64,000 nt of DNA from Candidatus Omnitrophota bacterium (lineage in GTDB: Bacteria; Omnitrophota; Gorgyraeia; Zapsychrales; JAKLDJ01), in contig JAKLDJ010000001.1 of assembly GCA_022703585.1 (NCBI GenBank), forward strand, positions 182,891 to 246,890, given 5' to 3'. Of the stretch, positions 1 to 48,700 are shown piece by piece (position 1 is the stretch's first letter; every line of letters starts with the position of its first letter). The position numbers and the translations under genes were made by a program. The notes under the pieces were generated by a model that was not told the origin of the DNA, searched no databases, and was given only the letters and a program-made list of their open reading frames with translations.

Positions 1-600
1 CAGATCTTGGGGCGTGATCTTATCCATCGGTGTCGGAACGATAGGAATTACTGGCATATTTTGGGCGGCATTCGGATCTCCAGGGTTAGGGCGCATAACC
101 ATCTGCCTGTCCTTTGATGCCATCAGAATGACCGTGCCCTCGGGAATAATCAGTTCATCCAGCCATGGCGGAACAATAACACGGCCCTTACCGAAGTTAC
201 ATACGGCCAATAAGAGCCTCCCGGGATCAAAGGGCCTGTAATATTCTTCCAAAAATTCTCCGACAGGCCGCCCGTTTTTCTTAAGACAAAGCATGCTATC
301 CTGGGAAGCATAACCGTGCAGTTCCAGAATATTTATATCTTGAAAAACATGATATTGGCCGCGAGTCGCGCTGACCAGGTAAACCATGCCTTTCGAGTAA
401 TGTTCCAGTTTCGGATAATAGAAAGACGGAGCATCATCGGGGACAATGCCAAGCACCCTGAGCGTTTCTGCAAGCTCCGTGTACATTCTAAAGACAGCGC
501 CAAGGTCATTCTTGACTTCGGAGTAAATATACTGAAGATAATCCGGCTTATAAATACTGGTAGAATCTGATGCGTCTGCTTCGGCGGTTTGGGGTATCGT
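1..600 (-). other. C-terminal-side domain of unknown function, preceded by a signal-anchor-like segment; a second copy lies at 10363-10960
   Basis: Verified translation includes ...GRPVGEFLEEYYRPFDPGRLLLAVCNFGKGRVIVPPWLDELIIPEGTVILMASKDRQMVMRPNPGDPNAAQNMPVIPIVPTPMDKITPQDL. I could not assign a family. Confidence 0.4.
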
Positions 601-775
601 GCCAGGTCCGGATATAACCGACAGCAAGACCAGCGCCAAAATCAAAACAGGACGTCTCGCCCGAGAGATGTGCCGCGCTTCGCCGACGGCGCGCGAAGAA
701 AGAGGATTATTGTCCGTCCGGATCATCCCCAAAATGGGCCCGGACCCGATGAGGCCTAAAAGACTAAAGAGGGCC
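1..775. repeat. Direct repeat copy A of an intragenic segmental duplication (partner 10363-11137, about 98-99% nucleotide identity)
   Basis: Positions 1-775 align base for base with 10363-11137 with only a few mismatches (e.g. tactgg vs tgctgg, ataacc vs atgacc). Identity ends at 775/11137. The copy may extend beyond the window start. Confidence 0.9.
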
Positions 776-27700: not shown

Positions 27701-30700
27701 TCTGCGTCAGAAATTCTCCGCAAAATCGCAAAATAAACGGCATTATGCAGACCATGCAGAATAAACGGCACAACAAAAACCCCTGTCTTCCAGTAGGCAT
27801 AGCCCCAGAGAATCCCCATCCCGATCCTGAAGATGCTGAACCGGTTATCGCTGTGAATCAAGGCAAACGCCACGCTGCTAACCAAAAGAGCGATGGATGT
27901 CGATACAGGCATACCCGCGACGATTGAGATCAGACCGCAATAATTCAAAAGCGCCTGGAGACCCATAAATAAGCCGGCCCGGAATATTAATTCTTCGACC
28001 AGCGGTATCTCAATCGCGATGGTGGTATAGGTTTTTAAAGGTTCCCCATAAATAATAGGGTGCCGGCTATCACGTCTTGAGGAATCTTTTAAATACCGCT
28101 TGGCAGACAGAACAAAGAAGAAGAATACCGGAGCACACAACAGGGCAACCATTTTAAGAGTGTAGAGCAGCGCCGGGATTATTTCCCGCCGGTCATGATA
28201 GGTCAACGCCAGGGCGATCGCCGCCGGGATAATATTGGCGACCAAAATTCCTGCCCAGCGCCAAAGCTTGTCGTCTTTCTCCTTTTGCCCATTAGTCTCT
28301 TCCTGCACCATCCCCACCAGCCCCGTTAGAAATGTTGAGGGCAATAAGAAAGTTGTTAAAATTTCTAACGGGGCCAGCGGCACAAACAAAAGCGGCCACA
28401 GAGCGAAGGGCGTAAGACAGCCGAGATTACCTTCTCGTGGCGACGCGTCGTCGCGGTATTTCACCTTTTCGATAACGATCATCATATTGCTGTCGGGAAG
28501 TGCGACCTCGCGTCCTTCTGAATCAAGGAGCCTGGCTTTGCCTTTTAAGTTGTCAATATACCCTTGCTGCAAATACGATTCTTCGTCTTTAGCTAACGGC
28601 AGAGATCTAACCACCATGCCTTCTTCTTGGGCAATCGCGGTGATCAAATCAATGTAACCCTGACGGGTCAAAACACCGTATTGCTCGCGCACTTCATAGG
28701 GTAAGCTGCTTGGGTCAAATTCGGGACGATAGGCCCAAGTCAATGTAAAGAGAAACTCCATCGCGTCTTTCCGTAACATGCGAATACGCCATATCTCCTG
28801 AGCGGTATCTTCAGAAACTATTTCATAGGCATCCGATAAATTCCGGCCTTGGAAATTATTCACAAAGAAATCAAAGACTTCCTTATTTTGCCTGCCTGTC
28901 AACTCAAGGATTTGCATTGCCTCGCCATCAGGCGGAATGGCGCCGTCGCGGATAAGAAGCCTGCCGCCAACGCCTAAAACCTGCAAGGCTGCCCTAAAAA
29001 GATCTCTGATCGATTCGATATTAAAACGCCGGCCGTCTTTTTCGGTATAGCTGTAGACTTCATGCAAGAGCGCGCAAAGAACAACCGTGTGGGCCATTGT
29101 TTCTCCGGCAGAGGCTAAGGCCGCTTTTAAATCGTTGGCGTTGGCTTTGATAACTCTCGCGGAGAGATTCTTTGCTTTTATTTTATGATCAAGTGCCTGC
29201 ACAGCCTCCTCGGAAACTTCAACGGCCAAGATCCTCTCAATGCCGTTGACCTGCTTAAATATTTCGGCGATCTCAAGCGTTGTGCCTTCACCGGGCCCGA
29301 TATCCACCCAGACGGGCCCACGGCCGTGCCTAAGAAGTCTGGCCTTGTCGCTTCGGGCAGCGGCCATTCCTTTTAAATAAAGCGCCTCATTGCTGACGCG
29401 GTCAAAGTTATCTTTACGGATGCCGTAGGCATCAAGAAGCATCTTAAGAACCTCGTGGAAGCGCAATGAATTGCTCACCTCATAGATATGAAGAAGTTCC
29501 AGCAAGTGGTTTGCTTCTTCGCTAAACCTGAAATCAAACGATATCGACTCCACGCCGGGGATGCCCAGATCGGCCGTTCCCAAAACAGGCTTTTCGCCGT
29601 CATGATGATCCGTCTTGTCAAATACTGAGACCGTCTCAGAATTAACGATCAGTTCTTCAAGGTCAACCCTGTCAAGCAATGCCTCCAGAATGCGAACCTT
29701 ATACGGGTCAAACTGATGCCGACCGCAAGAAAGCTGGCGCATAAGATCAAAGAAGCTGATATGAAACGGCCTTGTCATATCAATACCTTTTCTTTGGGCA
29801 AAGGCAAACGCCAAGGCAAGCACTTTAATTTGAGGCTCTGCCCTTAAATCGAATGTCGCACTTTCAACGTACCAGCCCTGGAAGTGCCTTAAGTCTTCGA
29901 TGAGAATCCGAATCGCCTCCGACGAAAGATTGTCAATCACGCGCTCTAATTCTTCTTTCGGCTCGCCTAACTCTCTTCTTTCCTGACGGAAGCGTCCCAG
30001 CCGGTCTTTTAGATACGCCCGCCGGGATTCTTCGGTTGCAAAGTTATCCCAACGCGCACGATAAACATCATCCCAGGAAACAGGGAATGTTTCGCCTTCG
30101 GGCGTAATAACACGGCAGAAATTATTAAAGAATCCGCGCATCTCCTCATTAAGCCGCGAGGTAAATAATCCTTCGCGAATACTCGATACATCCAAAACAT
30201 TTAACAGGTAAACAATATCGCCGACTCTTCGTGCAGCCAAGAGGGCATCATCCTGAGCGCCAACAGCCTCGGCAAGCTCTCCAAAATGCTCACGGATCCA
30301 ACCCGTGAAGTCTTCAAAAACATCGTAGGAGACTTCCCCTCTGACCCACTGCCCGGCAAAACCTCGGGTTTCGATAACGCGATAGAAGAATTCATTTAAT
30401 ACCATTCGGTGCGGATACGCCCTTAAAAGTTCAATATTCTCAAAAAGGCCTCTGTGCCAGCTTAAGGATGCCATATTACGCAAAATGAGCGCCGCTGCCT
30501 TATTAGGCAGACGAAAATCAATGCCCTCAATCTGCGCCCACTCTCGAAGCAACTCCGGCAGCGCACTTTTAGCCACATCATGATAGAGAAAAGCAATGCG
30601 TATGTAGGAAAGGATATCAAGTTTCTCGAGGGTGGCCACCACGTCCGCAAGATACTCAAATTCTCTGTTGGAGATACCCGGCTCGTCCTGAAAGAGTTTT

Positions 30701-33700
30701 AGATCTCCTCTTTCCAACCCCAGCAGTTTTCGAGCAAAGCCCCGTTCAAGGATATGCTTAACTAGAGATCTATTTCTTCGCGGCTGAACCGGCACCGGCG
30801 TGGCATCAAAGTTCATCGAGCCGGGCGCCTGGAACAAATATCCGTGAATCTCCGGAAAAAGCCGTTGTATCTCATTTTCTGCGGCAGTCTCGCGCGCACC
30901 CAAAAGTGGTTGGAATTCATTTACTAATGCTTGTGTATCGGTATAAATCCTTTGTTCGATGCGGTCTTTGTGGACAACAACAGCGGTCTTGATCGCCCCG
31001 GGTTTGGGACGGATCCGGTAGACTTGAAGGGTATGCCAATACGGCTCTTCGTCGACCCGTGCGTCAGCCTTGAACCTTAAGCCGCCTTCTTGAATCAACC
31101 AGTCTTTCCATTCCTGCGTAACCGACCCTATTTTTAGCGGCACCTCGAACGGCTCGCCTAATTTCTCGACGATAAGCCGGTCCCCGAATTCTTCAAGATA
31201 CCTTTCGAAATCTTTCTTCCCCAAACTGCTAACGTTCATAACAATACAGGCATCCGGATTATGCGGATTAAGATGGTCGACGCCGATTTCCAGTACCTCG
31301 CGGATAAAACCTGTTCCCCGATAAGGGTCTTTTTCATCCGTTTTCATGAAAGGCGGCAAGCTAATATAAGGCGGATTGATGATCATAATATCATACGCTA
31401 TATCAAGGCCCCGTATCCCTTTGCCCCAATAGGAATGAAGCTTAATAGAATTCCTGGGGCCCCGGTATGCCTTAACCGCCAGCACGGACGCTCTTAGGGC
31501 ATAAATACTGATATCGCTAAATCCGACGTGTTTGACGCCCGGGAATCTTGACAATATCGTCGCAGTAACCTTTCCGCCGCCGACTCCTCCTTCAAAGATG
31601 GATTTAATACTCGCCTTGTGCAGAATACCGGCTTCATCCATGCGCTTGATCAACAAAACCGTATCAATATTGGTCGTCCACACATCCCTGTCGATGCTCA
31701 AATCCCAGGAAACAATGACTCCCCGATAATGGGTATAGCGTCTGTTTTGTTTTAATAAGGCATTGAGCGCTTCTCTTGTTTCACCGGCAAGATGATGGTC
31801 AATAAATCTTTGCGGAGTAATAAGCCGGCAGTTGGGGATAGTGGCGACGGGCTTGTCTTCTAAAACCACGGCCTCATAATCGACGCTGCCGTCCTCTCTA
31901 AATACCTTTGAATCATCCAGAACACGGTAATAACTTATATCAAAATCACCTCTCTCATTATCCTGAATATCGATAAACAAAGATAACGGGTTGGTGCGAT
32001 CGGCAGGCAAAACAATCGATAGTTCCTGCGTCGGCCCTTCGGCAACAGCAACTTTCTTATTTTCATTCTGAACAACATTCGGGACAGTCAATAACTCGAT
32101 TACTTTAGAAAAATCGTTCCAGCCGCGCAAAAGATAATCGGCTCCGTTTTGGATCAATACGCTGCGGTTATACTCAAATTCTTTGCCTTCGCCTTGCGGC
32201 AGGCCAAAGGCAATACCGCCTAATTCATTAACAACGCTTAGCCCCCCAATCCAGTCATTGAAATAAACAAAGGTATGGTACGGGAATTGTATCTTGAGCT
32301 CCCGATAAACCTTTTCGCGCGAGATAGACGTATCAAGATTTTCCTCGGCATCTTTTTTGCCGACAACATGATTAACGGAGATATATTTGGTAAACCCGCG
32401 CCGGCGCAGTTGTTTGACGGCAAGCGCCGTCGGACTGCCGGTTATAACGACCATGGGAATATTGCGTTCGAAAAGCTCTTTAACAAATTCTAAGGCACCA
32501 GGCATGGCCTCGGGGACATTCTGGCGCAGCATATTGCGCTGATGCTCAAGCTCCCAGACGACTTCCTTTTCCGGCCTGCCGCAAATCTCGGCGATACGCC
32601 GGATGATCTCTTTTTCGTCGACATGGACCGCGTTGGCCTCAACCCAGGCAAGGCCGTCAGAATTACCGGTCAAACTATTGTAGGTGTAGGCATATTCGTG
32701 TTTCCATGTCGGCATAAAAAGCGTGCCGTGCATGTCAAGAACAGCCATAACAGGCCTATCCTGCGGAATGATTTTTTGTTTATCGGGATGGATGATTTCT
32801 ATATCCGTCCCGGGGATAAATCGCCTTACAGACAAGTCTTCTCTTTTGTCCACGCCATCGTTGTTGACGGCTCCTGCCAGCGACATAAACATCAAGGGTC
32901 CCAGGGCGAAAGGCAACACGAGACAGCCAATCGCTACAGCATCATCCTTAACTAAAACTCCTTTAAAGCCGTTGGAGAAATAGCGCACCTTTTGTTTACT
33001 GACCTTAAATACAAATGTCTCGACCGTGCCGTCTTTTTTCCGAGCCTGGATAGAGTGTTCTTGCCATTCCAACGAAGGAACGCTGCCTTCCATAATTCCG
33101 GGGATAGAGGCAACCGTCACACCCTCTTCTCTTAACTGGATACGAAGATGGGAAATCCTGGTAACTCTCCAGGAATCGATACGGACAGGCACCGCATTGC
33201 TAAAGTCGCTCGGGCAACGGGTGGCGATCAAGGCATCGTCAAAGGTTAATCCGACATGTTCCAAGATTTTGTGAATATACAAGTCGGTTTCGTCCAGAGA
33301 TCTGGCATTGATCTCTCCGATGATGTACCCGGCAAAACCGCCCCCGGCGGTTTTGCCGAGCGACACCGGCACCTTCACGATAATATCTTCCGGGGCGAAC
33401 TCGGGAAGCCTTTCGATATCGGGCGCATTTTCACCCGTAATAGGCCTTGCCTGGACGATAAAAAGGTCTTCGCCCTTAAAGGCAAACTCCACATCCACCG
33501 GAAATCCTAATGCATCCTCTAATCCCATGACAACATCCCGGAGCCTCTTGATTTCTCCCTGAGTCAAAGGAGAATCTTTCATTCGGCCGTCACGAGTTTC
33601 TACGGACGCTTTCCGGGAATGCCATAAGTCCTTAACAAAGCTTTCCATATCAGCGCGTTCCTGGCCGGAAGAAAGGCTAAGCTGTATCCCGTCCCATACG

Positions 33701-36700
33701 GCACCTTTAGGCTCGCCGGAGAATCCGTAATAAACCTCCAGGATATCACCGGTTGTGGCGTCAAGATCGATGATGGTGCTATAGTTACCGGCGACGGCCA
33801 TCATGCCTTCTCCGATCACGGTTTCGATGGTGGTGTATCCGGCCAGATGTGAAAAGGCAACTCCTGATTTTTCCGCGAAGATGTAATCCTGCAGGAAGGG
33901 ATGACGGTTACGCCTTGCTTCCATCTGAGCAACTCGACTCCCGAGTTTTGGTTCCGGACCAAATTCATGATCCATAGCCAAATCGGCCAAATCCTTGAAG
34001 CGATCCGTGAGCGAACTTACGAACCTGCCGGCATAACTTTTCTCAAAACTGTCTTCGCCAGGCTCAGAAGAACGCCATATGCGGCTTTGGGAAAGCCCGG
34101 ATACTTTCTTGAGCCAGCGGCCCTTTTCTTGCGCCGACAGCATCCTTAAAAATAAGAATTGGTCTATCAGCCAATCAAAATGATATCTGGAATCATGCCA
34201 CATGCGTTCATACAGCGACGGGGATATGTTGCCATTATATTTTAATAACCGAGTGATAAAAGGCGCGTTTCTTAAATCCAGGAATAACTCAGTCCACTCG
34301 TCTTCGGGGGCGTATTCAATAAACGGTTTAAACACGCTTTCAAAGAGCTGTCGAATCCTCTGCCTAAAATCATTTTCATCGGAGGCGTTTAAGTAAAGCT
34401 GCCTTAAGTAAAAAGAGCGACTGAATTTTCGGCTCTCTTCATCCGCCGGCAGAGCGGCTGCATCGCCTTGCGTATAAAGCCTCACCTCAATCGAGCCCCC
34501 TTCAGATGCCACGCGGATATACGGGCCCGGAATCTTGAAGATAGCTTCTTCAATCTTAACCTTGGCATATATGACACCGCTATGCGCATAGCGGTAGGCC
34601 AGGTCTTTAAGGTATTCGTTTTCAAAAATAACATAGGGAGGAATTTTAAAGCCCAGTTGCCGTGCCAGGCCCAGCTCATCCAAAATTATCAGCCAGGCCG
34701 CCTTGCCGCCATGCACCGGCATCAATTCCTGGAATCTTTCCCGAGACGATTTGCGATTGCTCTGGAGGACCCCCAACAGCGGCAGGATGAAGAAAAACAT
34801 ATCCGGAATAATAAAGGCGTGAAGTTTTGTCGCCGTCAACTCAAAGCAATCCACCATCCCTTCCCGAAGAATGCTGTTTTGAAGCAGCCACTTTAGAGCC
34901 TCAACACCGGTCAGCCGCCATGTGCGCGGATCCTGGAAAGAAATCCGGAACTGCCCGAAGCCGGCCTGGCCCCGTAAATACCCCATCAATGTCCCGGCAA
35001 TAACCTCTTCAAGGGATACTTCACCGGTTCCGCTGACCTTTTCAACAACACGATAATGATCGCTGCGCCGGTGCACGTTTCCGTCGATATCGCTCACGTA
35101 ATAATCCTGATATAATGTTTTCCTCGTTTTCAGATTGGCAATCTGCCTGAACGACTTAAGTGTGATACCGACAGGCAACACGTCTTTTAAAATCCTGTAG
35201 AACTGAAGACCCAGCCTTTGGCCGGAGAGATGAATCACGACATTCGGGCTAAAGGAAACATAATCCAGATTAATAACGATCGATAATACGTCCCCTGTGC
35301 CGTCTTTCCCGGGGGACTTGATCAGTTTCACAATCGGCTTGGCGGATACCAAATGGTCGCTTTCTCTTTCCAGGAACACTTCAACGGCATCCGGCTTATA
35401 ATCCGGTATGTGTGCCCTCAAGCTGTAGCATGAATGATCTTTCGCCGTCATTTCTTTTCCGCTCAGCGCGCGCGCGATATCGGAGAGCACAATCATGGGG
35501 AGGCTATGAGAGCAATCGCCCTGCCGCAGTCCGGCGGGGTCAGGGGCCAATGCGCCCTCATTGATTCCTTCGGGGCGCATTGGCCCCACAGCGTTTTCCT
35601 CAAAAAGCGGATTTAAAACGACAAAAAGCGTCGTGGTTACCGTTTCGCCTTCCCTTAAATACTCAAGATGCACTTGGGTTTTTTCCATCAGTCGACCCAA
35701 GCCCTGCATGCCACAGCCTTTATTACGATAATCACTTCCCCACCTTCTCCGGCCGCCTGTATCTGCCAGGTAAACAAGGCCCTGCCTAAGGCCTCGTTGG
35801 TTTTTCTGGAGCATGCCCCAGCATTCTTTGCTGGCCAATCCATTTTGTCGGAGTATAACCTGTAAAATATATTCCATCGCCCCGCTTTCCGTTGTTCTTA
35901 AATAAATCCCCATCGCGCGATATCCAATAACACCACCCCGGCTGTGATATCCGGCATTATCTTCCAGCCCTGAAATCGCATACACCAGAGGACTCTTATT
36001 CACGGTTCTTCCGATTTCGCCCTCAAGAATTTGAATAATATCGTAATCCCGATAAATACCGTTGATGGCCAGTTCTTTCGGCCCAAAAACTCTTTCTCCT
36101 GACCCGCGCGCCTCTATTCCGCCTTCCATATTGGTAAAAACAATTCGTTCGCTGTCATCAAAAACCATGCCGGCAATCGCCGCCAGGGGAGCCAACGTTA
36201 AGAAAACAAGGCAGGAAACATCTTCACCGTCATTTGAATCGCGCTTCAGGGACGTATCCAAAAGATCAACATGAGCAGCCGGCTCACCGATAGCTTTGGT
36301 CGCCCGTTCAATCTCCTTAAGGCAAACGCCTTGGAATAAGGTTACACAATCGGCAACAAATTCCTGCACGGCCGTCTTCCACCGGTCAAGCTCGCCTTGC
36401 CCAAGACGCGCAGCCTCCAGCAGGGAGAAAAGCTCTCTTTCGACAGCATAAGCTTCTTGAGCCTGCCCTGTTGCTCTTAAAGCAGTCATCATCCTTGATG
36501 CTATGAAAATGCTATCGCAAAGATTTCTTTTGCGTGCCTTGACGTTAATCTCTTTTTGGGAAACATACCCTATTTCCCTATGCGCCGACTGTGCCGCCTC
36601 TCGGATTTGTTCAACAGTAAAGAAGCTCATGTCCGCAACAAAACACTTAAATTCTTCTTTATCCGTCGTAAGCTGCCAAGCTACGGCATCGGCAATAACT

Positions 36701-39700
36701 TCACCAAATACCCTTCCCATCATTTCAAAAGGAAAGAAACTGCGTGGGTCAACTTCATAGGACCGCTCGGGAATATAAAGCCCGCTGATATATTGACTGC
36801 CACATGGAGCATTATAGAGACGTTTGGATAGAATCTCTTTTTCAGCTCTTTCGCTATATTCGATCGTTTCAGGAAATTCATGAAAGACAGCGCCATGGCC
36901 CAGTTCATGACGCGCCACCACCTTTAAGCCAAGAAGAATTCTATCAGCCGTATATGTCAATGCACCCGTAAAAAGTGAAAGGCCGTATTGGCGGTCATTC
37001 TCACAACGCCCCCTGACATGAAACATCATTGGGGTGATGGCATGAACGCCTTCTGCCATTCCTGCTTTAACATGTAAAAATTGGACCTTGATGCCAAAAT
37101 GTTCCTCAAATCGCTTGATTTCTTCGCTAAGAACAGTAACGGCGCGGACAAGTTTTTCAAGAGTCCAGCCATTTTGTTTTCCTTCATCCAAGACACGCAT
37201 CAATTCTTGTTCAACGAATTCAAAATGTCTGCGCATCAGCCCCTGCAGACCAAGCTTTTCTTCAAATTGCAAATTATCGTAACCATGCACGAGAAGCGGA
37301 CAGGAAAGAATAATCTTCTGGATGGGATTTGGATTGGCTTTAGCCGCCTCCAGAATTTCATCCCGCCTTTTGCATTCCGTCTTCGCATAGAGAGCGATCT
37401 CAAGCCATACCTCCAGCATCCCCGGAAAGGCCATCTGACCAAAACCCGTCAGGCGATTGATCTCCGCGCTTGACCGCGACCAGTAGTCACCGGTTAAAAC
37501 TCTCTGCGTAATAAATCGCTCAAAACCGGAGCCAGAGCCCAGCAAACCTTTGTATCGCCCTTCAAGGATCTCCGTGCGAAGGGCATCAATAGCTTTTTGG
37601 CTGCCTTTATATTTTTTCTTAGCGGCGCTGGCTTTTGCCAAAAATTCAGAAAACCCGGACTGCGCATCTTTAAAGCTCGCAACAATCTCTGCGGAATAGT
37701 CAACATCGTCTTCTTGTTGGTCCACGGCACCCAAAGATAACAAAGGTAAAATGGGCAGACCCAAAAGCGGAAAAACAAAACAGGAAACATCTTCGCCTCC
37801 TGATTTCTTCTTCGTAGAACGAGTGCCGGAATTCTTATATTTTTTACCTTTGTATCGCTCCTCACACTCTCTGCGATGGGCCTCCTGCGCAAGAATACGC
37901 TGGCGTTCCTGAGGAGGAAAGAGATGCCGGGTGCGGCTATCCAACGCCAGATAATACCTTGCTTTTGCTTCTATTTGGCGCACGCGTTCCCGCGTTAGTT
38001 CAAAGCGTTGCCCCGCCTCTTCAAGCGGTATCGCATCCTCGTAAGTCTCATCAAAACGGCCACCCTCCACCCCCCAGCGAATAGAGATCAGCTCAATATC
38101 GCGCTCGGGCATGCCGTGCTCGAAAAGAACCTGTCTGACCAAGACAACCAGTTTAGGCCCATCCAATTCAAAATCGCGCTGCGCGACAAGCTCCAGGTCG
38201 TTCTCGTCGGCAAACGGCAACGGCTCCATGTCTTCGTCTTCCCAGTGAAAATCAAGCCGTATCAAAGGATCTGACGAAGCCATAACTCTATGCATATCCT
38301 TAAGCTTTATGCCCAGACGCTCGGCTACCTCTTCATCGCGGACAGACCGTTGTCTTTCTTTTTCTAAAGCGGCCCGCGCTTTCCTTATTTTATTTGCCGT
38401 TTCAGCCCGATTGATGGGGATACGTACGGTTCGGCTTTCATTCCCAAGGCAGCGCTGGATCGCCTGGCGTACCCACCAGGCGGCGTAGGTCAAAAATCCT
38501 TCGCGCGCCGGATTCCAGCGCTCTGCCGCGGTGCGCAGGCCCATATTCCCTTCGTTGATCAAATCAAGAAATGTAAGCGGGGAATATTCGCTCAGATACT
38601 GGGCGTATCGTTTTGCAATGGAAACAACAAAACGCAAATTTGCTTCTATCAGATATTGCTTGGCGATCGGGTTGCCGCGCTGTATCTCGCGGCCCAGCGC
38701 TCGCTGCACACGATTAGACAAAAGGCGGAACTGTTTGATGTCGTTTAAGTACGCGGCAATGGCGTCGTCCGGTGCGCGCCGAGATGTCGACGGGGAGTCA
38801 CGGCGCATCGCAAAGGGCGCGATCGCGTCCGCTGTCACCTGCCAGTAATGAACAAGCAGCTGGTGTGTCACACGATAACGGTCCTGGTGCGGTATTTTTT
38901 CCAGAATTCCGCGCGCCACAAGCACACGCAGGCCGTCGCGGATAGTAGCACGTTGCAACCGGTAAAGGACTGTGTACCTTTTACCTCTATATCTTAATCT
39001 CTTTGGAAGGTTCCTTTGTGACGACGGGTACAGAGGGGTTCGCTCTTTCAGCATCTTCGAAGGCGGGGTAAAAACCCAGAGAGTGCGGTGCTCGTCGATA
39101 ACGACACGCGAAAGCGCAACTCTACCTTTAAACGCAACGTACCGGCGTAGCGCATCAAGGTAAGTATCAAAATCAAATTCCTGCCGCTCCATCAGCGAAT
39201 CCTCTTTATCGTCTTTTCCGCGCCAGCGCAGGACTTTTTCTGCCGTCCGAAGCGTACCAAAAGCAAAGTCCCGGCTGTCATGCTGCGCCACCGCCGCCTT
39301 ACTCTCCGAAAGTCCGGGCTTTGACGAGTCTGGGCTTTGTCGAGATTTCCCCGCACGCGCGCGACGGGCCTTCGGCTGAGGTTCATCAGCCGGGTTCGTT
39401 TCGACTTTCTCCTCGGGCAAAACCGGAGCCGTCATTGCCGCAGCAGCCGAATCCTCTTCGCGATTGCCTGCGGCCGCTAAAAGCACGCCCACAAGAATCG
39501 CCATCACCTCTAGCGGGCTGGGTTCGAATGTACGCGGGAACTGTGCATTAAATTCTTTAGCGCGATCCGGCGATGTTAAATTCACTCTAAAACGCAATCC
39601 GTCTTTGCTGTATATCTCGGCACCGTCTTTATCTTTAATAAAAATAACCTGCGCCGGCTTGCCGTCTTTTATCATGACCACAACCTCGGCGCCGCGGAAT

Positions 39701-42700
39701 TCTGTGTACGTCCCGTAGTATTGCCCGAAGACGTACAGTGTCCCGTTTTCGGCATGAATGTAATACCGGAAAAATAGTTTGTTACCCATCCCCGCGGCGC
39801 GCTTAATCATCCGCCGCTGGTTCATCTGGTCAAAGGTATCTTCGAGGATACCGGTTTCCTCATCGCAGATGTAGCATAATCGTTTTGAGACACCGGTCAC
39901 GGTATTGCCCTGGACATCCCGGACAACCGAGGCAGCCACCACAAAGGTACGGGATCCACTCGGGTTCACAATCTCGACATCCGACCGGCCGTAGGGATAC
40001 TGGCCAAACGCGACCCAGGGTTCGCACTTTCCGTCTGCCTCGCGCCGGCAACGCAATCGCAGGCTACCGCGTTTATCGAGTGATACATTCTTTAAAATAT
40101 AACAATCGGTCAGCGCATTAAATTCGGCATCGCTTAATTCAATAAACACGCTGACATCCTTTTTAAGCTCCGTGTCGTAGACAACCGAAAATTCGCAATC
40201 AAGGTCGGATTCTAATGACTTAAACCGATAGACAAGCGCGTCACGAACAAACGCTATCCCCCACTGGCTGCCATATTTCACGGCGAAATGCGCCCATTCG
40301 CGGTTTTCCATGCGCGGCCCGTCGACTGTCATCACCGGCCTGCCGCCGCCAAAATTCAACGATCCCCTGTTGCCCAATTGCGTCACAACCGCGATATGCG
40401 TATGCGCCGCGCATAAAGGAGCAAAGACGTCATGGCGCACCTTGGTCCGCTCAAGAATAATCGCGCCCGTATCCATATCAATCAGCCGCGTCTTGCCGTC
40501 TTGTTTTGAAAGCGCGTAGGCGTCATCGATTGCCCGGCGTAGCGATTCAGGGATCACCCACGGAACAAAGAAACACCCCAACGCTTCGGACTCGCGAGAC
40601 GAATCAGGAACGACCCCTTTTTCTCTTTCGGCATCCTTTCTTTCGGCAAGAACAGCAAGAGTTGCTTTTCCGTTTTGAGGCGTGTAGCCGAGATCTTTAA
40701 AAGGACTTTGATAACCGAATCCGCTATGAAACGGCAGGCGACGAATAGTCATTTTTCTCTTTCGAGTCTTAGCCTGGGCGAAAAGATTATCGATATCAAT
40801 GCCTTGCCTGGCAAATTCTTGATGCGGAGGATTGCGCAATCGTTCATGCACCCAGTCAATAATCTGAAAGACTCTAACGCGCGTCATGCCAAAGTCACGG
40901 GCGACTTCATCGCCTGTCCCGCCTAAAAACAGATAGCGGATAACAACCTTGCGGTTGCGCACAGAGACATTTCTTTCGCTCATCACGATATCCAAGACCC
41001 CCATCACTCTCGAGCGCCTGTTTTGGTTTTCCTCACTTTGCTCAAAATCATCGGAGAATTCCGCATGTGCATTTTGGACGTTATGCGCCAGCCAAGATTC
41101 GCTATACCGGTCTGTTTCTTTTCTTCTGGACCTCGACCGCGACATAATGCCTTGCTGGATAAGATAATTGGAAACAGCATTGGCTAAAAATCCGCGCCGT
41201 CGTTCATTTCCCCTAAGAAGACTGATAAATTCCCGGCTCGTTCTTGGCTTTCTTTCATCACGCGTCACAAAATCGATCGCTTTAGAAAAGACCATCTGCG
41301 CCATATAACGGATATCCCCGGCATCGATACCCTTCTCCCGGTAATCGCCGAAATACGAAAGCAGGAGCTTCACAACGCAATATTCCAGATAACCACGAAA
41401 GCGCCTGTTTAATGCGTCGTACGCATTACCGTTGTGCTCACCGATCAAACGCAAGAGTTCAGTCGCGATATCTTCTCTGGTAGGTAGCCGCAAAGCCTCC
41501 TTGACTTTTTGACCGTTGTCCTTTGAATGTACACCCGTCCAACTCCATGTGATGCGCCGGCGGTCGGGCTCGGGAATCCCGAAGGCCTCACGCAGCCGCT
41601 GAATACCGCCGAACTTTCGAATCATCCCGGCAAGATCGGGATGTGTTTTATTGATGTCATTCAATCCGACACGAGTCAAATCATAGCCGCCTTCTTTTAA
41701 TCGCACCTGGAGATAATCGGCAAGAATTTCCGAAGGAATAAATCTCAAGAAAACTATCGGATTCTTCAGCCGCCGCCGGCGGTCGATCCAGTCAAACCAA
41801 AAGGCCGCCAGGGTTTCAAATTTCGAGCCGGTATAATCAACCCGTAAGCGATAGAGCGCCTCGATCTCATACACAGCACCATCGTTAAGATAGGAATACA
41901 AAAGCCCGATCAAACTTTTGCCGTTGAAGGCCTTGAGCGGTTCGCGGAAATCATTGGGTATTAAATCCCCGGCCGATGAACGCCTGTCTTTGAATTCTTC
42001 GAGCAGAATATCAACGAAGGCCCGAATGACAACCAATCGCTCTGCTTCGCCAAGCGCGTGGATCTCCTTCCAGAATCCTTGCTTGCCGGATTTTCGCCCT
42101 GTCCGGAATCGCTCAATCCACGGCTGGGCCGTTAACCCGTTATCAGAAATTGTGCCTGCCAGCCCAAACAAAAGGGCCGGGAAGAAAAAGGCGATGCATT
42201 CCAGCGATCCTTCCTGTGCCGTCGAACCACCGGCCGCGTCTTCCGCTCCTAAAATAAATTTGATCACTTCAATCTGATCCGGATCATAAAGTCCTCTGAG
42301 ATAATAATCAAGCGCCGTCTCAAGCGCACTGGGACTAACCGCTTCAAGCGTATCAGCCTTTTCACTGATCGTCATCAGCCGGTCGTAAAATCCATCCGTA
42401 TCAACCAAGGAATCCAGAATCTGAATAACTTGACAGGCTGCTTCAACGCGCCCGCGGACTGTCATCGTGAGGCGGCCCGAAGGGCCGCCGGAGTACATTT
42501 CGCGTAAAAGTGCGATCATCGTAAAGTCATGAGCCGGTAATCGGCCGGCGCGCACCCGAATAAAATCCTCTGTCCGGACAACCCAGGGCAAGGTCGCCGT
42601 CCCGGAAACTTTGTACGGGACAAAATTCCTCCTCGCCTCGGCAACGATCCCATAGGCATCACTGACATCCCTTGCCTTTCCTGCTTTCTGGATCCACAAA

Positions 42701-45700
42701 CCGACGGTTGCCGACCAACGCGGGTCTTTGGGAGATGTCTCACTAAGGAGAAAATCTTCGAAAATCTGTTTTAATTCTATGCCGAGCTCGATGCGCATGA
42801 TTTGATTGAGGGCCGCCATATCAAATCCATCCTCGTCAACAGCGGGATGGCTGTCTTCAAAGAACACTCTTTGGCAAATTTCCTTGAATCGACGCCAGCC
42901 ATCTTCAATATTGTCATACTCCTGTTCTTCGCCTTCGTCCGGCGCATAATCGCCATCGAAAACAATCCTTCTCTCGATAACAATCCGGTCAACAATATCC
43001 ATAATCTGCCGAAAAGCATCTTTGAGTTGTTCACGGCACTCCCGCCACCGGACATTGTGGACCCTGGCTTGCTGGGAATTAAAAAGCTGAACTTGTTCGA
43101 ACTCCGACGAATCAGAGCATCGGACCCACATAACAGGAGAATCCAGCCGGGCGTCATGGGCAAAGCCCTCAACCACAGCAGGAACATACCGACCCTTTCT
43201 CTGCTCAAGCAGCATGACCGCCTCGTCTTCTTTAAAGAGGCGGCTTTTCCTGGCGGCAACTTTTTCATCGACCCCGAGCGGATAAACGCGCACAATCGCG
43301 TCTTTGTGCCGCCGGCCTAAAAATCCGTCGGAGGTTAAAAACATGATCATCCGCCTGTTTTGAAGATTGGGCTGCTCAAGGACGGCGACTTTCTGGCCGC
43401 CGACCTTATATCGAGGCTGCTCGCCTTTCGTGAGGGGAATTTTGTACTGGAGAAATACGATTTGACCGGGCCTCACCTTAAGGCCCTGACTATCCTGATC
43501 GACGATGAGGTCTGCCTGATTGAGCTTTTTGTTGACCAGAAGCTCCGGGTAACCGAGCCGATTCAATATAAAGTTAATTTCGGCGAGCTTGCCCGGCTGG
43601 CGCTCCAGCTCTTTAAAATCTTCGCTGAACAGTTCCTTAAGCCTCCCCTGCCAGTCCTCGGACGTGGGCCCGTTGTCGATTTGGCCCAAAAATATAACGG
43701 GGAGCCCCGCTATAAAGACGGCGGGCCCCGCCAAAGACAGCCCGGCTTCGCCGAAGGCGAAAGCCGAGGCGAGCGGGGTAAACAGGTCCGCCAATGGCAC
43801 AAAACATCTCAAACCGCCGGAGACATCCTCATCTTTTTCTTCATTTCTTCGCCCGGGAATGCTCCAGGTAGAAATGAAATGGGGCGGCAATTTAGGTTCG
43901 CTATTAGGATCTACGCGGTTTGCGATTACTTCAAAGTCCGGAAATGGAATTTCCGGATACCAATTCCGAATAACCATTTGCCCGGGAGGAAAAATACCTT
44001 CGTATTGTTTCTTTCCGGTTTTCCGGCCTTGTCTGTTTAAATACGGGACCAGGATTCCTTTATGGGGCTTTACCATCACCCAGTTTAAACCATTGACAAA
44101 GGCCATTCCGTTTAGAGCCAACACCCGTTTAACGTCTTTTAAAGCCTTAAGTTTATCAGTAACATAACCCAGTGTTTCCCATGTCAATAAGACCAAGTCA
44201 AAATGTCCGTCGGGGTACGGCAGTCCGTTTCCGACATCCCAGAGCCGGGCATGGCTTCTAAAATATTCCATGAACGCTCGAATCTCTCTTAAAGAAGGAT
44301 AAAATTCATGCCGAGTTAACGCTCTCATAAACTGGGATTCATAAATGCGAATATCTTCTTTGTTGATAAAATGCGTCTCCACGTCCGGATAAATTTCCAT
44401 AAATTCATACACAATAACTCCGGCGCCCGCGCCGATAATAAGCGCGCGCTGTCCTTTTCGTCCGGAAAAATCCCTCGACACCATATGAGAAAATTGTTCG
44501 TCCTCAGAATCAAACCCTCGCGTAACATTGACATAGGAGAAATAAGGATTATGGTAATCTTCGTCCATCATTCCCACCAAAAACACGGCGCTCATCCCCG
44601 CCATAAACGGCAGGATAAAACATCCCAAATGATCCGTCGGTTCGCCCTCTTTGTCCGGCGTATTGGTTGATACGAAATCGTCCTTCGAATCCAGCGTTTC
44701 TTTGAGGGTCGGGGGCCACCAGTGATAACGGCTATTGGCCGCCCTCGGCAGCCGCGCCAAGGCCTGGAGGACTTCGGGAACTTTCTTGTGATCCGTAACG
44801 GTATCAGGCGAAACCCCGGCTTTTTGCGCGACCATTTCTCGCGTGGCCGCTATACCCTCGGATATAAAGAATTCTGCTGCCGCAATAATATCATTACTAC
44901 AGGAAGACCGTCCGTGCCTTGATTCCGGTAGCCGGGCAAAGGCTTGGGCAACGGCGGGATTGGATTTTCTGGCTTGAGCAAGAGTAGTAAGGCCAACTTT
45001 GGCTTTGTTCGCGACCATGGCTCTGGTAACTACCCCACCCTGCAACACAAAAAACTCAACCGCCGCGATGATGGCGGAGTGGCTGGGGCATTCTTTTGCC
45101 TTCGCCTTCGGCAACCGGGCAAGGGCCCGGGCAACGGCGGGGTTGGATTTTTTAAACTGGGAAACAGTATTAGGATTAACCCGTGCCCTGTGGGCCACCA
45201 TCTCCTGCGTAACATAAGGAGTACCTTGATTGATAAAATACCTGACGGCAGAAATAATTCTCCTGGCGGGAGGAGTTTTTAATCTTTTGGCTCCCGAAAC
45301 CTGCCCGTCTCGGCCTTTTGTCCGTCCGTTGGACGAGATCTCGTCCCGCTTTTGGGCGGGACGGACCTCGCCGGATCCGGATCTGTCCTGACTTTGAGCC
45401 TCGCCGGAACCGGATTCAATATGTGGAAGTTCCTTAAATAGGCCGCCGTAGTATCTTTCGAGCGTACTGGATGCAATACCCAGAAAATCCGCCGCTTTTG
45501 AATACGAGCCTTTTGCCTGTTCGAAAGCCAAATATACGGCATATCTTCGGCCGGATTTAATCGCAGGAAAAGCAACTTCTAGGTCATTTAACTCTTTCAC
45601 AAATTGCGGCAATTGCCTGCGCACAGCCCCAAAAACGGACGAGTCCGGGCCGGAATCTCTCATGATTTTTTTAACCCCGGGAGCATGAAGCCGTAACAGG

Positions 45701-48700
45701 CGTGCCGCTTGGTCGATATCATTGTCTTTAATCAAAAGCGCCGCATAGACGAGAAGCGTCTTGACAAAGACAATCCACTGCGACAATAAGCCGCTTTCTA
45801 CGATTGCCGTGCGCACAAGCAATTCGGCCATCGTTAATTGTTTCGCGACCCCGGGAATAACCTGGCCATCCTTTTGAAGGACACTCCCGTATTTTCTCTT
45901 TAGCATTGCCGTATTAATCCCCAAAAATTGTGCTGTACTCTGTTGATTGTACTCAGCCTTTTCAAAGGCAATGTCAACGACCAATTCCTGAGCCTCGGCA
46001 AGCGTGGGTAATCGTCGCGCGGAACCGGCATACGCCTCAATAAAATTCTCCAGGGATGCCTCGAGCGCAGTCGTTAAAACCAGGTCTTCGCGGACAAGAG
46101 ATGGGGGGCCAATATTGGTATAGATCGCCCGCGGCCCAGTACCGACCATTTTGGCGGCAACGGCATACGTACCTCCCAGACGATACGCCGCGCGGAATAA
46201 AAGAGCTTTGGTAAACGAAAACCATTGAAAATAAAGACCGCTTTCCTCCAACGCACTCTTTAGAGTAATACGCGCGTATCCGGAATCATACAGGGGACTG
46301 GGAGTAAGAGGCTCCATTCCCGGTAATGGCGATAGCCTGTCAATCTCGGGAGAAATTACGGCGTCTCCTCCCTCTATCTCCGGAACCATACGGGCGCGAT
46401 AAACCCGCCAGAAGGTTGTCGAGTGAATGCCGAGCAATTGGCTGGCCAGGTCCCTGCACCGCCCGCTTCGGCAATAAGCGATATTAGCAACAATCTCAAA
46501 CGATTCTCGAAATGTTGGAAAAGCCGTAATACCGGAGGTTTTCAAAAGGGACAGAAAAGCATCTACCTGGCTTAATGCCTTCTGGGTAATGAGCGGATAA
46601 TGCTCGGCATTCTTTATTTGATGAGACAGGGTCGTCGGATCGATACCTAAGATAGGGGCCGCACGCCGACGGATTCCCCGGTTCTCTTGAAGCGCGGCAT
46701 AAATCAACAAATACCGTGTAAATAAAAGCCAGTCGGATGTTAAGCCGCTGGTGATAAGAACGCGATTAAGGATATCCCGCAAAGAAGCTAAATTCCCGAC
46801 ACCGGTCACGGGCTTAAGCGGCAATTGTTTCTCAACGGCAGCAATATCGTACGCGGCATCGAGGTCTCCGAGCAATTGAATCCAGGTCCCTTGTTCTTGT
46901 TCCGAAAATCTGTAAAATCTCTTTTTAGATATTGATGGACACAAGGCGGCCAATTCTTTCGCCAGCCACATGCGATAACTATCCCTATCGAGATTTTGCT
47001 GCCTGGCTGATGTTTGATGTAGAAAATCAACTGATTGTTTGAATAATTTGTCCGCTCTCGGAGATGTATAAGCAATATCGGGATTCTGATACAGCATCTG
47101 AATTAAAGAACGCAGCGTATCGATTTTATAGGCAATAATGTTACAGTAATTGAGCACCTCTAAGCGCGCCTCCCGGTTGTGAGCCTCAGCGGCCATTTGC
47201 ACAGCCCGGATAGTTTCATCGACGGTCGGCCCGGCTAAGAAGCCTGCGGCCTCTTGCTGAAAACTGCGCACAAGCTCTTCGAGGACATCGGCAGAAATAA
47301 AACGCCTCAACAATTTATCCTCAAGGCTGGCATAAAACCGCACGCTCCCCGGGCTACCCTGGCGCGCGACGCGCTTTTTTGCCTGATGGTCAATACGACG
47401 CTCATCATTGACCGAAATAATCGCGTGTAACCCGCCCAGCGCCTCTGCCCGCGGCTCCAGCACAATATCGGTTCCCCGGCCGGCAATATTCGTTGCCACG
47501 GTCACGGCCCCAACCTTTCCTGCTTCAGCAACAATACGCGCCTCATGAGCGTCATTGCGGCCGTCCAGAAGGTTGTGCGCCACCTCCCAATCCCTTAGGA
47601 TCGTGCTCATAATATGCGCATCCTCAATGGTCGAAAAGATAATCAGAACCGGACGTCCCTGGGCATGCACTTCTAACGCGTCTACGGTCATCCTTTCAAA
47701 TTTCTTTGAGCGCGTCTCGGATAATACCGAATGAAATGCCGTCATTCGCGATTCCTGATTCAGAGGAATACACAGGCTCTCAATACCGTATAGATCAAAA
47801 ATATCAGCAGCCTGCCGGCCAATCGTACCGCTCATCCCCGCCACACGGCCGCCGCGCGTGATAAGCATCCGGTAAAACACCGGGTACATCATAAGGGCAA
47901 TAAATTTCCGGGACCCGGTAAGAGCAACACCCATTTTGATTTCGACTAATTGCTGGATATAGTGAGCCCAGACCGTCCTAAATTTAAGACGCCCAGTATG
48001 GCTATCAACGATAACAACTTCACCGTCCTCAATAACAAAATGTTCATTCTCTTTATAAAATTCTTTGACTATCAGTGCCCGGGGAATAAACGATTCCACT
48101 GAGTTGATATACTGCGCATGTGCCAAAGTTGAAGCGGCAGCCCGATTCCGGACTTTCCTTCTTCCGGCTTCGGTTAGAGTCACGGTTTCATGGATTTCAT
48201 CAACTTCGTAATCAGGATCGCCGACTTTTACCAGGCTATCGGCTATTGAATAAACCGTCTTCAAGAATTCCGGAGTAAAAGATTCGTCGCTGCTTCTTCG
48301 GCCACCCCACCTTGTCCTTTGTCCCTCGGCTATAACCAGGGGAAAACCTGCCTCGTCGACAAAGATACTGTCAACCTCATCTACGACTGTCAAAAACGGC
48401 AATTGGTGAGCCAGGACATGTTTCTTCCGGTCTAACTCAACCTGGTCATGGAGATAATCAAAAACAACCTCGCTTTTATCCGCATACACGATATCGGCGC
48501 TATAGACGGTTTGCGCCTCATGCCAGGGAATGTGCCGGAAAGAGCCGGCTTCTTCATCATCAGGAAGCGTATTGTCAAAAAGATACCGCCCCCGGTGCGT
48601 GACCACCCCAATCGATATGTTTAACCGCGAAAGAATCGTACCCGCCAGTTCGGCATCGCGCCGCGCCAGATAACTATTAAAGGTATGGATGTGGGCTGGG

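Follow-up and report, generated by a model that had tools for sequence, protein, structure and literature searches.

We analyzed a 64,000-nucleotide stretch of the genome of a Candidatus Omnitrophota bacterium (contig JAKLDJ010000001.1 of assembly GCA_022703585.1, positions 182,891 to 246,890), here called the window. It holds no ordinary genes, solely one giant open reading frame (ORF) on the minus strand, and within this ORF lies a module of the sigma-70 family, whose identity and possible mode of activation are the subject of this work. An initial annotation of the window had spoken of a giant ORF, and a six-frame count bore this out: no stop was found in the minus-strand ORF frame, against 588 to 1,439 stops in each of the other five frames. 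Both ends of the ORF are open, indicating that the gene is longer than 64 kb. Neither Rfam families nor tRNAs were found in the 64-kb window. The ORF and its sigma module are laid out as follows.

1..63999, minus strand: giant multi-enzyme ORF, 21,333 codons, stop-free, open at both ends
37915..38772, minus strand, codons 8410-8695: complete sigma-70-family module (Pfam, NCBIfam, PDB, column conservation)
38,671-38,766, minus strand: sigma region 1.2 (alignment to SigA)
38,434-38,652, minus strand: sigma region 2 (Pfam Sigma70_r2)
38,212-38,403, minus strand: sigma region 3 (Pfam Sigma70_r3)
37,957-38,109, minus strand: sigma region 4 (Pfam Sigma70_r4)

A complete sigma factor is embedded in the giant ORF

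The initial annotation had recognized a sigma-70 region 2 at about 38.5 kb, and had named Pfam searches for regions 2, 3, and 4 as the check that could overturn it. Its peptide NLRFVVSIAKRY was recovered exactly at codon 8454 (38,640 downward) and FLDLINEGNMGL at codon 8477. All of its peptides share one minus-strand frame, the strand not having been stated there. The segment that we scanned for sigma domains is the one between the flanking separators, recurring peptides that are described below (codons 7814-8739, 926 aa). Sigma70_r2 (PF04542; E 5.2e-12, 45.8 bits over a cut-off of 24, covering positions 1-69 of the 71 in the model), Sigma70_r3 (PF04539; E 1.6e-10, 41.3 bits against 25.3), and Sigma70_r4 (PF04545; E 3.8e-7, 30 bits against 24.1) all scored above their gathering cut-offs. 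The match to region 1.2 (PF00140) stayed under its cut-off of 22 (E 0.0065, 16.9 bits), but the PDB alignment does span region 1.2 of SigA. The assignment is thus stronger than had been claimed, since the ORF harbors a complete sigma from region 1.2 to region 4.2 and not only a region 2 motif. The range of 38000-38900 that had been given for it holds most of the module, although region 4 lies just below 38,000.

The NCBIfam sigma-70 superfamily model TIGR02937 was passed (63.6 bits against a cut-off of 42.9). The RpoS model (E 2.6e-50, 171.6 bits) and the RpoD model (E 3.3e-47, 161.8 bits) matched under their equivalog cut-offs of 378.7 and 555, and indeed all equivalogs (RpoD, RpoS, RpoH, and MzaA) were far under their own cut-offs. 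In the PDB search, SigA, RpoD, and RpoS chains were aligned from region 1.2 through the end of region 4.2, the best match being SigA (E 9.6e-42). Over this span, the embedded sigma departs from the solved chains only by two small inserts, one in region 2.1/2.2 (5 aa) and one in region 4.1/4.2 (7 aa); region 1.1 is not part of it. A HMMER search over 1.84 billion representative proteins recovered 56,474 relatives, and the nearest relatives of the sigma part (query positions ~595-880) were ordinary sigma factors with 35-43% identity.

We then compared the embedded sigma with its 16 nearest free-standing relatives, taking as reference the 45 columns with a conservation of 90% or more in that set. 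It keeps 39 of these 45 near-invariant columns, and the six departures include the start Met, an F-to-W change, and an E-to-D change. Consensus-matching stretches are DLINEGNMGL, TYAAWWVRQAIQR, RTVRIPI, and TRERVRQIEAKA, the last of which aligned to the SigA 4.2 helix. In known sigma factors, DLINEGNMGL is linked to core binding, TYAAWWVRQAIQR to recognition and melting of the -10 element, and TRERVRQIEAKA to -35 recognition. At a position that we take to be that of T440 in Escherichia coli, the embedded sigma carries a Q. The GC content at third codon positions is 0.57 in the sigma module and 0.527 ± 0.040 in the ORF as a whole; the difference is about one standard deviation, which argues against the sigma being a recent foreign insert, and we rejected a recently acquired foreign segment as its origin.

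Taken together, the embedded sigma is almost certainly a real and intact module. As judged by its sequence, it is of the complete group 1/2 type, comprising regions 1.2 to 4.2 without region 1.1, and it probably acts as a transcription factor.

The sigma is the last domain of a separator-bounded module

The sigma forms the C-terminal half, and the last domain, of a module of about 930 aa that is bounded by separators and reads, in this order, beta-rich N-domain, short hydrophobic segment, linker, sigma, and basic tail.

40540..40587, minus strand: degenerate separator EALGCFFVPWVIP between the sigma module and the preceding module, the second of two that carry a PFHSG motif (hidden Markov model [HMM] E 0.051, 10 hydrophobic residues)
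39592..40485, minus strand, codons 7839-8136: beta-rich N-domain in the sigma module; conserved copies precede sigma-like regions in other giant proteins
39460..39528, minus strand: short hydrophobic segment MAILVGVLLAAAG in the sigma module (Kyte-Doolittle 1.63), without the Cys motif
38773..39459, minus strand: pre-sigma region, an acidic, Pro-rich, then basic low-complexity linker followed by a helical-looking part of ~150 aa
37792..37914, minus strand: basic tail after region 4.2, …RYKGKKYKNSGTRSTKKKSGGEDVS, running into the separator (sequence, charge count)
37720..37791, minus strand: separator closing the sigma module, DVS-C-FVFPLLGLPILPLLSLGAV-DQQEDD (separator HMM 43.9 bits, E 7.5e-16)

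The pre-sigma region had no Pfam match and no PDB relative. From the end of region 4.2 to the Cys of the closing separator there are 45 residues, and the 15 residues before this Cys carry a net charge of +2, the highest value among 19 separators; positive charge before the Cys was seen at one other separator (+1). A terminator-like hairpin with a T-tract (CAGGAGGCGAAGATGTTTCCTG TTTTGTTTTT; 37,802-37,781, minus strand) falls exactly on the separator after the sigma. The T-tract is explained by the Cys-Phe-Val-Phe codons TGT TTT GTT TTT, and as hairpins are not enriched at the other 18 separators (p = 0.14), this one is probably incidental.

The initial annotation had also suggested looking for anti-sigma-like partners nearby, but no recognizable anti-sigma domain was found in the window. 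The sole HATPase_c module is a histidine-kinase-type catalytic domain (PhoR, E 4.7e-6) and was rejected as an anti-sigma of the RsbW/SpoIIAB type. The best candidate for an anti-sigma-like partner would be the beta-rich N-domain, though nothing identifies it as one. In its AlphaFold2 model the mean confidence (pLDDT) is 66 and exceeds 80 in the first 140 aa, and this model gave no PDB fold match better than E 0.17.

Cysteine-containing hydrophobic separators punctuate the ORF

About 19 separators occur along the ORF. They follow the pattern [DE]x(L)(G/S)C(F/L)xxP, then 15-45 hydrophobic residues (measured lengths, 15-47), G(M)(V), and acidic residues; the hydrophobic stretch is rich in Leu, Phe, Pro, and Gly, often ends in G-M-(V/I/T), and is preceded by a polar, often acidic run. 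A simple form of the pattern was found in 18 copies, compared to 0.03 in residue shuffles (shuffle maximum, 1), and the separator HMM gave matches down to E 2e-20. Cys makes up only 0.7% of the whole protein. The spacing between separators ranges from 272 to ~5,000 aa with a gene-like median of ~600, and the domains in between are covered nearly full length by Pfam matches. From copy to copy, the Leu and Gly of the motif are encoded by different synonymous codons, indicating that the separator is conserved as a peptide.

Twelve of the 19 separators end in G-M directly before the polar stretch. At the DNA level many of them end in GGGGATG (Gly GGG plus Met; for example at ~13,500, ~14,660, ~17,220, and ~19,280 on the minus strand), which represents a preference for one Gly codon beside a conserved Met and is not placed like a Shine-Dalgarno site. 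Three other identities for the separators were tried and rejected, namely internal translation starts (Shine-Dalgarno-like motifs precede 12.5% of in-frame ATGs, the background being 12.6%), RNA hairpins or terminators (energy of folding upstream, -6.9 versus -6.1 kcal/mol, p = 0.14), and known C-terminal sorting domains (no NCBIfam match even at E 10).

The 15 residues after the separator have a net charge of -6 to 0 in 18 of 19 cases and +2 in one. Both flanks are net acidic or neutral in nearly all cases, with no alternating positive-inside signal, and a naive alternating topology would place the sigma and the PPDK_N domain on opposite sides of the membrane, and likewise an S-adenosylmethionine (SAM) methyltransferase and the HATPase_c module. 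By these signs the separators do not resemble the helices of an ordinary polytopic membrane protein, the topology argument being weak evidence. A recurring Cys-hydrophobic separator in giant genes is not described in either of two studies of this gene class (10.1101/2023.11.21.568195 and 10.64898/2026.06.07.730766); the former raised cleavage as a question and stated that the cleavage points are unknown.

The ORF encodes an intramembrane protease module

One module of the ORF belongs to the CPBP family.

27670..28419 (core 27,691-28,026), minus strand: Rce1/CPBP-type multi-pass intramembrane glutamic protease module (PF02517)

The module starts at codon 11861 and its span runs to codon 12288. 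PF02517 was matched with E 1.3e-13 (51.5 bits against a cut-off of 22.4), and the catalytic motifs EELIFR (EExxxR), FALIH (FxxxH), and HGLHN (HxxxN) are all intact. The nearest NCBIfam models are MroQ (E 3.6e-10, 39.7 bits, under the cut-off of 270), MrtJ (E 1e-8, 35.7 bits, under 75), the myxosortase core Mrt_core (E 0.003, 17.5 bits, under 100), and MrtC. Since every specific Mrt or MroQ model stayed below its cut-off, we regard the module as a CPBP family member without an assigned subfamily. It opens with a long separator variant (…PLEILTTFLLPSTFLTGLVGMV), of which small variations occur at codons ~14,412, ~16,415, and ~19,555.

The N-domain and sigma cassette recurs in other giant proteins

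The two best matches in the search of representative proteins were not sigma factors but fragments of huge proteins, P0001 (4,769 aa) and P0016 (3,621 aa). Both match the beta-rich N-domain (26-32% identity, E 1e-28 to 2e-21) and contain two full copies of it each. The giant gene behind P0001 is truncated by the start of a 31-kb contig from the Joint Genome Institute (JGI) metagenome sample 3300021498, so that only its C-terminal part is present (L001:2-14311); ordinary TPR, radical-SAM, and chemotaxis genes lie downstream of it. In all three proteins, the sigma HMM detected a sigma-like region 195-260 aa downstream of an N-domain copy.

Window: N-domain at codons 7839-8136, sigma from codon 8396 (sigma HMM)
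P0001: N-domain at residues 33-317, sigma-like region at 511-579 (sigma HMM)
P0016: N-domain at residues 1407-1716, sigma-like region at 1937-2031 (sigma HMM)

Furthermore, P0001 harbors a fuller sigma at residues 3769-4016 (Pfam r2, E 2.5e-9; r4, E 4e-5), which ends 13 residues before a separator of P0001's own type, a run of 3-4 Ser. Judging from these sequences, sigma modules recur in the giant-protein class, where they are C-terminal in their module, or bead, and accompanied by a conserved partner domain.

In P0001 and P0016 the separators are of a different kind, runs of 3-4 Ser with L, I, P, or A as the next residue (for example KSSSSLF and FSSSPL). Most are spaced ~190-740 residues apart; the outlying distances are 18 and 1,658. 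The type of separator may be lineage specific.

Other searches for relatives were empty. Exact 52-mer scans of viral, genome, and metagenome collections gave nothing, a search for related loci in GTDB genomes found no relative, and megablast of 20 kb against plasmids and phages found no match. A word-indexed protein search with the 926-aa sigma module likewise returned nothing, probably through a failure of candidate selection, as HMMER on representatives found tens of thousands of sigma matches. Neither 10.1101/2023.11.21.568195 nor 10.64898/2026.06.07.730766 speaks of sigma-70 domains in its main text, and a huge-protein survey and the text of one supplement likewise make no mention of sigma, although other tables may list such domains.

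Two PFHSG modules are paralogues but not sigma factors

The initial annotation had pointed to two further segments with a helix-turn-helix (HTH) and a shared PFHSG motif, which it took for paralogues placed immediately before a punctuation module.

60937..62544, minus strand, codons 486-1021: paralogous module 1 (HTH at 61,219-61,353; PFHSGEGYVSPFEDLGYTP motif at 61,072-61,131)
40549..42120, minus strand, codons 7294-7817: paralogous module 2 (HTH at 40,834-40,959; PFHSGFGYQSPFKDLGYTP motif at 40,678-40,737)
60,919-61,017, minus strand: hydrophobic segment without Cys after module 1

Alignment confirmed the paralogy: the two segments are the C-terminal ends of modules of ~520 aa that are 34% identical over their whole length (BLAST E 1e-29 to 4e-34) and belong to a larger ancient duplication including a second unknown module and SecA units. 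Both copies of the shared motif are present in the same minus-strand frame, with PFHSG at codon 958 (61,128) and codon 7756 (40,734), each followed by GY(V/Q)SPF(E/K)DLGYTP. PFHSGxGYxSPFxDLGYTP is identical at 16 of 19 positions, far above the 34% of the surrounding modules, and lies between the HTH and the hydrophobic segment in a stretch that AlphaFold treats as disordered (model pLDDT 52). It might serve as a short linear motif in docking or processing. A degenerate DNA scan of JGI metagenome contigs for this motif was empty, and the paralogue alignment gave no match in a word-indexed protein search.

The label of a sigma region 4-like or LuxR-like HTH held in part. A sigma-4-like HTH is only moderately supported: hhalign of the paralogues against the sigma alignment gave a probability of 77.5% (E 1.9e-5, 53 columns, regions 4.1-4.2 only) and sigma-4 domains ranked first, if weakly (E 0.036-0.6), in a PDB profile search of the HTH. 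However, Pfam r4 (E 0.015 and 0.03; 14.3 and 15.2 bits) stayed under its gathering score of 24.1 and GerE (14.1 bits) under 23.5. HTH_28 was also under the Pfam threshold, and TIGR02937 (E 1.2e-5 and 0.002) was under its cut-off in both copies. Neither Pfam r2 nor hhalign found a region 2 in the paralogues, and the sigma HMM matched with model positions 227-298 only. Because they lack region 2, the paralogues are not sigma factors; they are helical modules, probably DNA-binding or RNA polymerase-associated accessory beads. As for their placement, the sigma and the two paralogous elements indeed lie 35-50 residues before a hydrophobic segment, but the Cys motif of this segment is not present in all three: it is full after the sigma, degenerate after PFHSG copy 2, and absent after copy 1.

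Further content of the ORF

Pfam domains of about 20 distinct families, none of them dominant, tile the ORF. They include several SAM methyltransferases, a PPDK_N ATP-binding domain, a HAD hydrolase, an M20/M28 peptidase, an adenosine deaminase, a PrmA-like methyltransferase, a PIG-L deacetylase, and a glucosamine-6-P isomerase-like domain. A hydrophobicity scan counted 47 hydrophobic segments. The larger features away from the sigma are as follows.

56,161-58,218 and 46,942-49,089, minus strand: two SecA-like units (DEAD, preprotein-binding, and P-loop domains)
~52,510-55,553, minus strand, codons 2816-3830: tandem HTH array, ~17 head-to-tail units of ~58 aa each
~45,430-46,780, minus strand, codons ~5741-6190: second, more diverged HTH array, after the second SecA unit
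~7,800-8,320, minus strand, codons ~18,560-18,740: MutS domain V ATPase (MutS_V, E 4.7e-45)
1-~780 and 10,363-~11,140 (codons 21052-21333 and 17609-17879): direct DNA repeat, ~99% identical, offset 10,362 nucleotides

The two SecA units are 39-44% identical to one another and match SecA_DEAD (E 6.3e-57 and 6.3e-56) as well as SecA_PP_bind and P-loop_SecA. A SecA unit used as bait returned ordinary, free-standing SecA proteins only, mostly of Chloroflexota/Dehalococcoidia (32-37% identity), with no giant proteins among the matches. Blocks of the first HTH array are 46-57% identical, with a unit consensus of roughly KIPGLLAQAGPEKLRGLNIAQAAKVIGVSQTGLSRYFRKHPDEIKRYGIVKGK, and a tandem HTH array of this size within one protein is unusual. 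The ORF also contains a Fis-type HTH (HTH_8, E 1.8e-12). Around the MutS_V module the Pfam scan detected no other MutS domains. Internal duplications are frequent in the ORF. The ~99% direct repeat, which reaches the window start and contains a separator plus the ISRARRPVLILALVLLSVI hydrophobic segment, stems either from a recent duplication within the ORF or from a problem of assembly.

Possible release of the sigma by proteolysis

We propose that the sigma, being embedded in or tethered to a membrane-associated giant chain, would be a pro-sigma that is unable to join core RNA polymerase freely. Cleavage at the flanking separators would then free a sigma-containing fragment into the cytoplasm, for which the CPBP/Rce1-type intramembrane protease module of the same ORF would be the most obvious candidate enzyme. 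Finally, the freed fragment would bind core RNA polymerase and read promoters with near-canonical -35/-10 elements. There is a precedent for a pro-sigma that is freed by an intramembrane protease, Pro-sigmaK and SpoIVFB (PMC11486902). Membrane sequestration followed by proteolytic release is consistent with the separators on both sides of the sigma module, with the presence of the CPBP module, and with the absence of charge alternation. We put the proposal as a whole, the identity of the sigma together with its tethering and release, at slightly less than an even chance; that activation of the sigma requires proteolytic release is a tentative reading, somewhat more doubtful again.

The separators could work like Cys-type sorting signals. 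CPBP enzymes have been proposed to cleave C-terminal sorting signals in which a Cys signature precedes a transmembrane segment and this in turn an Arg cluster (10.1101/2023.06.07.544157), and for MrtX the cleavage of such signals, with Cys residues being required, was shown experimentally (PMC11980579). The resemblance consists in a short signature that contains an invariant Cys and leads directly into a hydrophobic stretch of membrane-spanning length, in many occurrences on otherwise unrelated passengers, and in a CPBP/Rce1-family intramembrane glutamic protease that is encoded alongside. By this analogy, the likeness is one of working, not of membership.

A number of points weigh against release. 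Cys-type sorting signals are C-terminal, whereas the separators are all internal to the ORF, and where the former have an Arg cluster after the hydrophobic segment, the latter have acidic residues. The separators do not match the NCBIfam models of C-terminal sorting signals, and no relative carrying the same Cys-hydrophobic separator was found in any collection searched. The passengers of known Cys-type signals are extracytoplasmic, whereas a sigma is necessarily cytoplasmic; the sorted passengers elsewhere are surface proteins, those of the ORF a sigma and enzymes of a cytoplasmic type. The CPBP module scores under every specific Mrt and MroQ cut-off and may have another substrate. Release at the N-terminal side is less obvious, because the separator before the sigma module is degenerate. 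The topology analysis is a crude hydrophobicity scan and, as such, weak evidence. We consider it unlikely that the CPBP module is the processing protease. No more likely is a bacterial polyprotein divided into gene-sized modules, in which the separators would be cut by the encoded CPBP module, perhaps after lipidation of the Cys, and a regulon-switching sigma would be freed among other products; if true, translation and processing of one gene would yield an enzyme set and its own transcription factor.

The sigma might instead act in cis without being released, the intact membrane megaprotein docking core RNA polymerase or promoter DNA at the membrane. Such a role would sequester RNA polymerase or couple transcription to the DNA-handling beads of the ORF (17 HTH units, the Fis-type HTH, and the MutS ATPase). 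Indeed, the ORF has unusually many elements of a DNA-binding type (the HTH arrays, HTH_8 with 1.8e-12, MutS_V with 4.7e-45), there is no sign of cleavage, and the conserved cassette of N-domain and sigma would suit a fixed scaffold equally well. However, a sigma cycles on and off core RNA polymerase and accommodates ~80 bp of DNA, so that thousands of flanking residues would presumably be sterically demanding, and action in cis would account neither for the regularity and conservation of the separator peptide nor for the presence of an intramembrane protease module. On balance we regard action in cis as rather unlikely; if the sigma is never released, it would represent a new way to anchor RNA polymerase to a membrane megacomplex. 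The ORF could also be read as a stop-free operon, in which the beads are made separately from internal translation starts or transcripts and the separators are fossil intergenic spacers. The modules are gene sized (median of ~600 aa between separators), 12 of 19 separators end in G-M directly before a polar stretch, and an in-frame ATG with GAGG 8 nucleotides upstream is found at codon 8270, ~126 codons before the sigma match (8396). Against this, Shine-Dalgarno-like motifs are not enriched before in-frame ATGs (12.5% versus 12.6%), hairpins are not enriched at separators (p = 0.14), and promoter- or terminator-like sites around the sigma stay within ~1.7 standard deviations of shuffles. The separator is kept at the peptide level despite its changing codons, and the complete lack of stops over 64 kb implies selection for continuous translation, leaving the stop-free operon with little chance of being correct.

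The initial annotation had entertained, next to membrane-sequestered regulators, a capture of domains without regulatory function. In that case the sigma and HTH modules would be passengers of a fast-evolving, recombining gene and play no role in transcription. Giant proteins of this class combine hundreds of unrelated Pfam families and are mostly unique in sequence (10.64898/2026.06.07.730766), internal duplications are frequent in the ORF, and the HTHs of the PFHSG paralogues are degenerate. Nevertheless, the four sigma regions are intact with 39 of 45 near-invariant columns kept, the sigma matches its host ORF in composition, and the cassette of N-domain and sigma has persisted in three giant proteins despite an identity of only ~25-32%, which argues for purifying selection. 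Functionless capture is therefore disfavored and, in our view, very unlikely. Least credible of all is an artefact, that is, a continuous frame or an embedded sigma created by mis-assembly or chimerism. The direct repeat of ~780 nucleotides with ~99% identity (1-780 versus 10,363-11,140) could confuse an assembler, and no matching sequence exists in any collection searched, but zero stops in 21,333 codons are beyond chance joining, the same separator family stands on both sides of the sigma in a uniform composition, and the independent giant-gene fragment from a JGI metagenome has sigma domains as well.

Because a sigma must be cytoplasmic and cycle on RNA polymerase, it is a natural reporter for processing, and the combination of a sigma bead, separators, and a CPBP module makes it testable whether giant proteins are cut, and where.

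Comparison with known systems

The ORF matches the published multi-enzyme giant protein class of Omnitrophota. For giant genes of this phylum, divergent SecA DEAD domains and a large number of transmembrane regions have been reported (West-Roberts et al. 2023, 10.1101/2023.11.21.568195), and the "multi-enzyme" class 1 giant proteins contain methyltransferase, HATPase_c, HAD, and sugar-metabolism domains (10.64898/2026.06.07.730766). The ORF shares with them its length (more than 10,000 aa in that class, at least 21,333 codons here), divergent SecA units with DEAD, preprotein-binding, and P-loop domains, many hydrophobic segments, a tiling by methyltransferase, HATPase_c, HAD, peptidase, and sugar-modifying domains, and internal duplication, all without close sequence relatives. 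The sigma fold and the giant-gene class are already known. New, as far as the literature was searched, is a complete sigma as a bead of a giant gene, together with a Cys-hydrophobic separator and an embedded CPBP protease.

Like the free-standing sigma factors SigA/RpoD and RpoS, the embedded sigma has collinear regions 1.2, 2.1-2.4, 3.0-3.2, and 4.1-4.2, with 35-43% identity. However, these are separate genes of 250-650 aa, whereas the sigma described here lies within a far longer ORF (at least 21,333 codons), of which it takes up codons 8410-8695. The second-best NCBIfam match was MzaA of the MZA anti-phage system (NF041931, E 1.5e-49), which is likewise a long protein with a C-terminal sigma. 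Membership was rejected: the score of 169.5 bits is far from the cut-off of 800, and the match comes from the generic sigma domain alone; other Mza components did not turn up in the window, in which no search was aimed at them.

With Pro-sigmaK/SpoIVFB and pro-sigmaE/SpoIIGA of Bacillus subtilis, the embedded sigma would share an inactive, membrane-associated precursor and proteolytic activation; sigmaK is activated by an intramembrane protease (PMC11486902, PMC6242693). The Bacillus precursors carry an N-terminal pro-sequence of ~20-30 residues, whereas here the flanks comprise thousands of residues, and the candidate cut sites are Cys-hydrophobic separators, unlike these pro-sequences. The proteases also differ, being an S2P metalloprotease or an aspartic protease in Bacillus, while the only intramembrane protease seen here is of the CPBP type; no segment of the window had a Pfam match to Peptidase_M50 (S2P). 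By analogy, Pro-sigmaK/SpoIVFB would nevertheless be the closest mechanistic precedent for the proposed release, with a different protease family and a different scale. If the proposal is correct, the sigma would be activated by a route that is distinct both from the degradation of an anti-sigma and from the removal of the short pro-sequences of sporulation sigmas, and should the sigma work only once released, giant genes would contain regulatory circuits that are complete in themselves.

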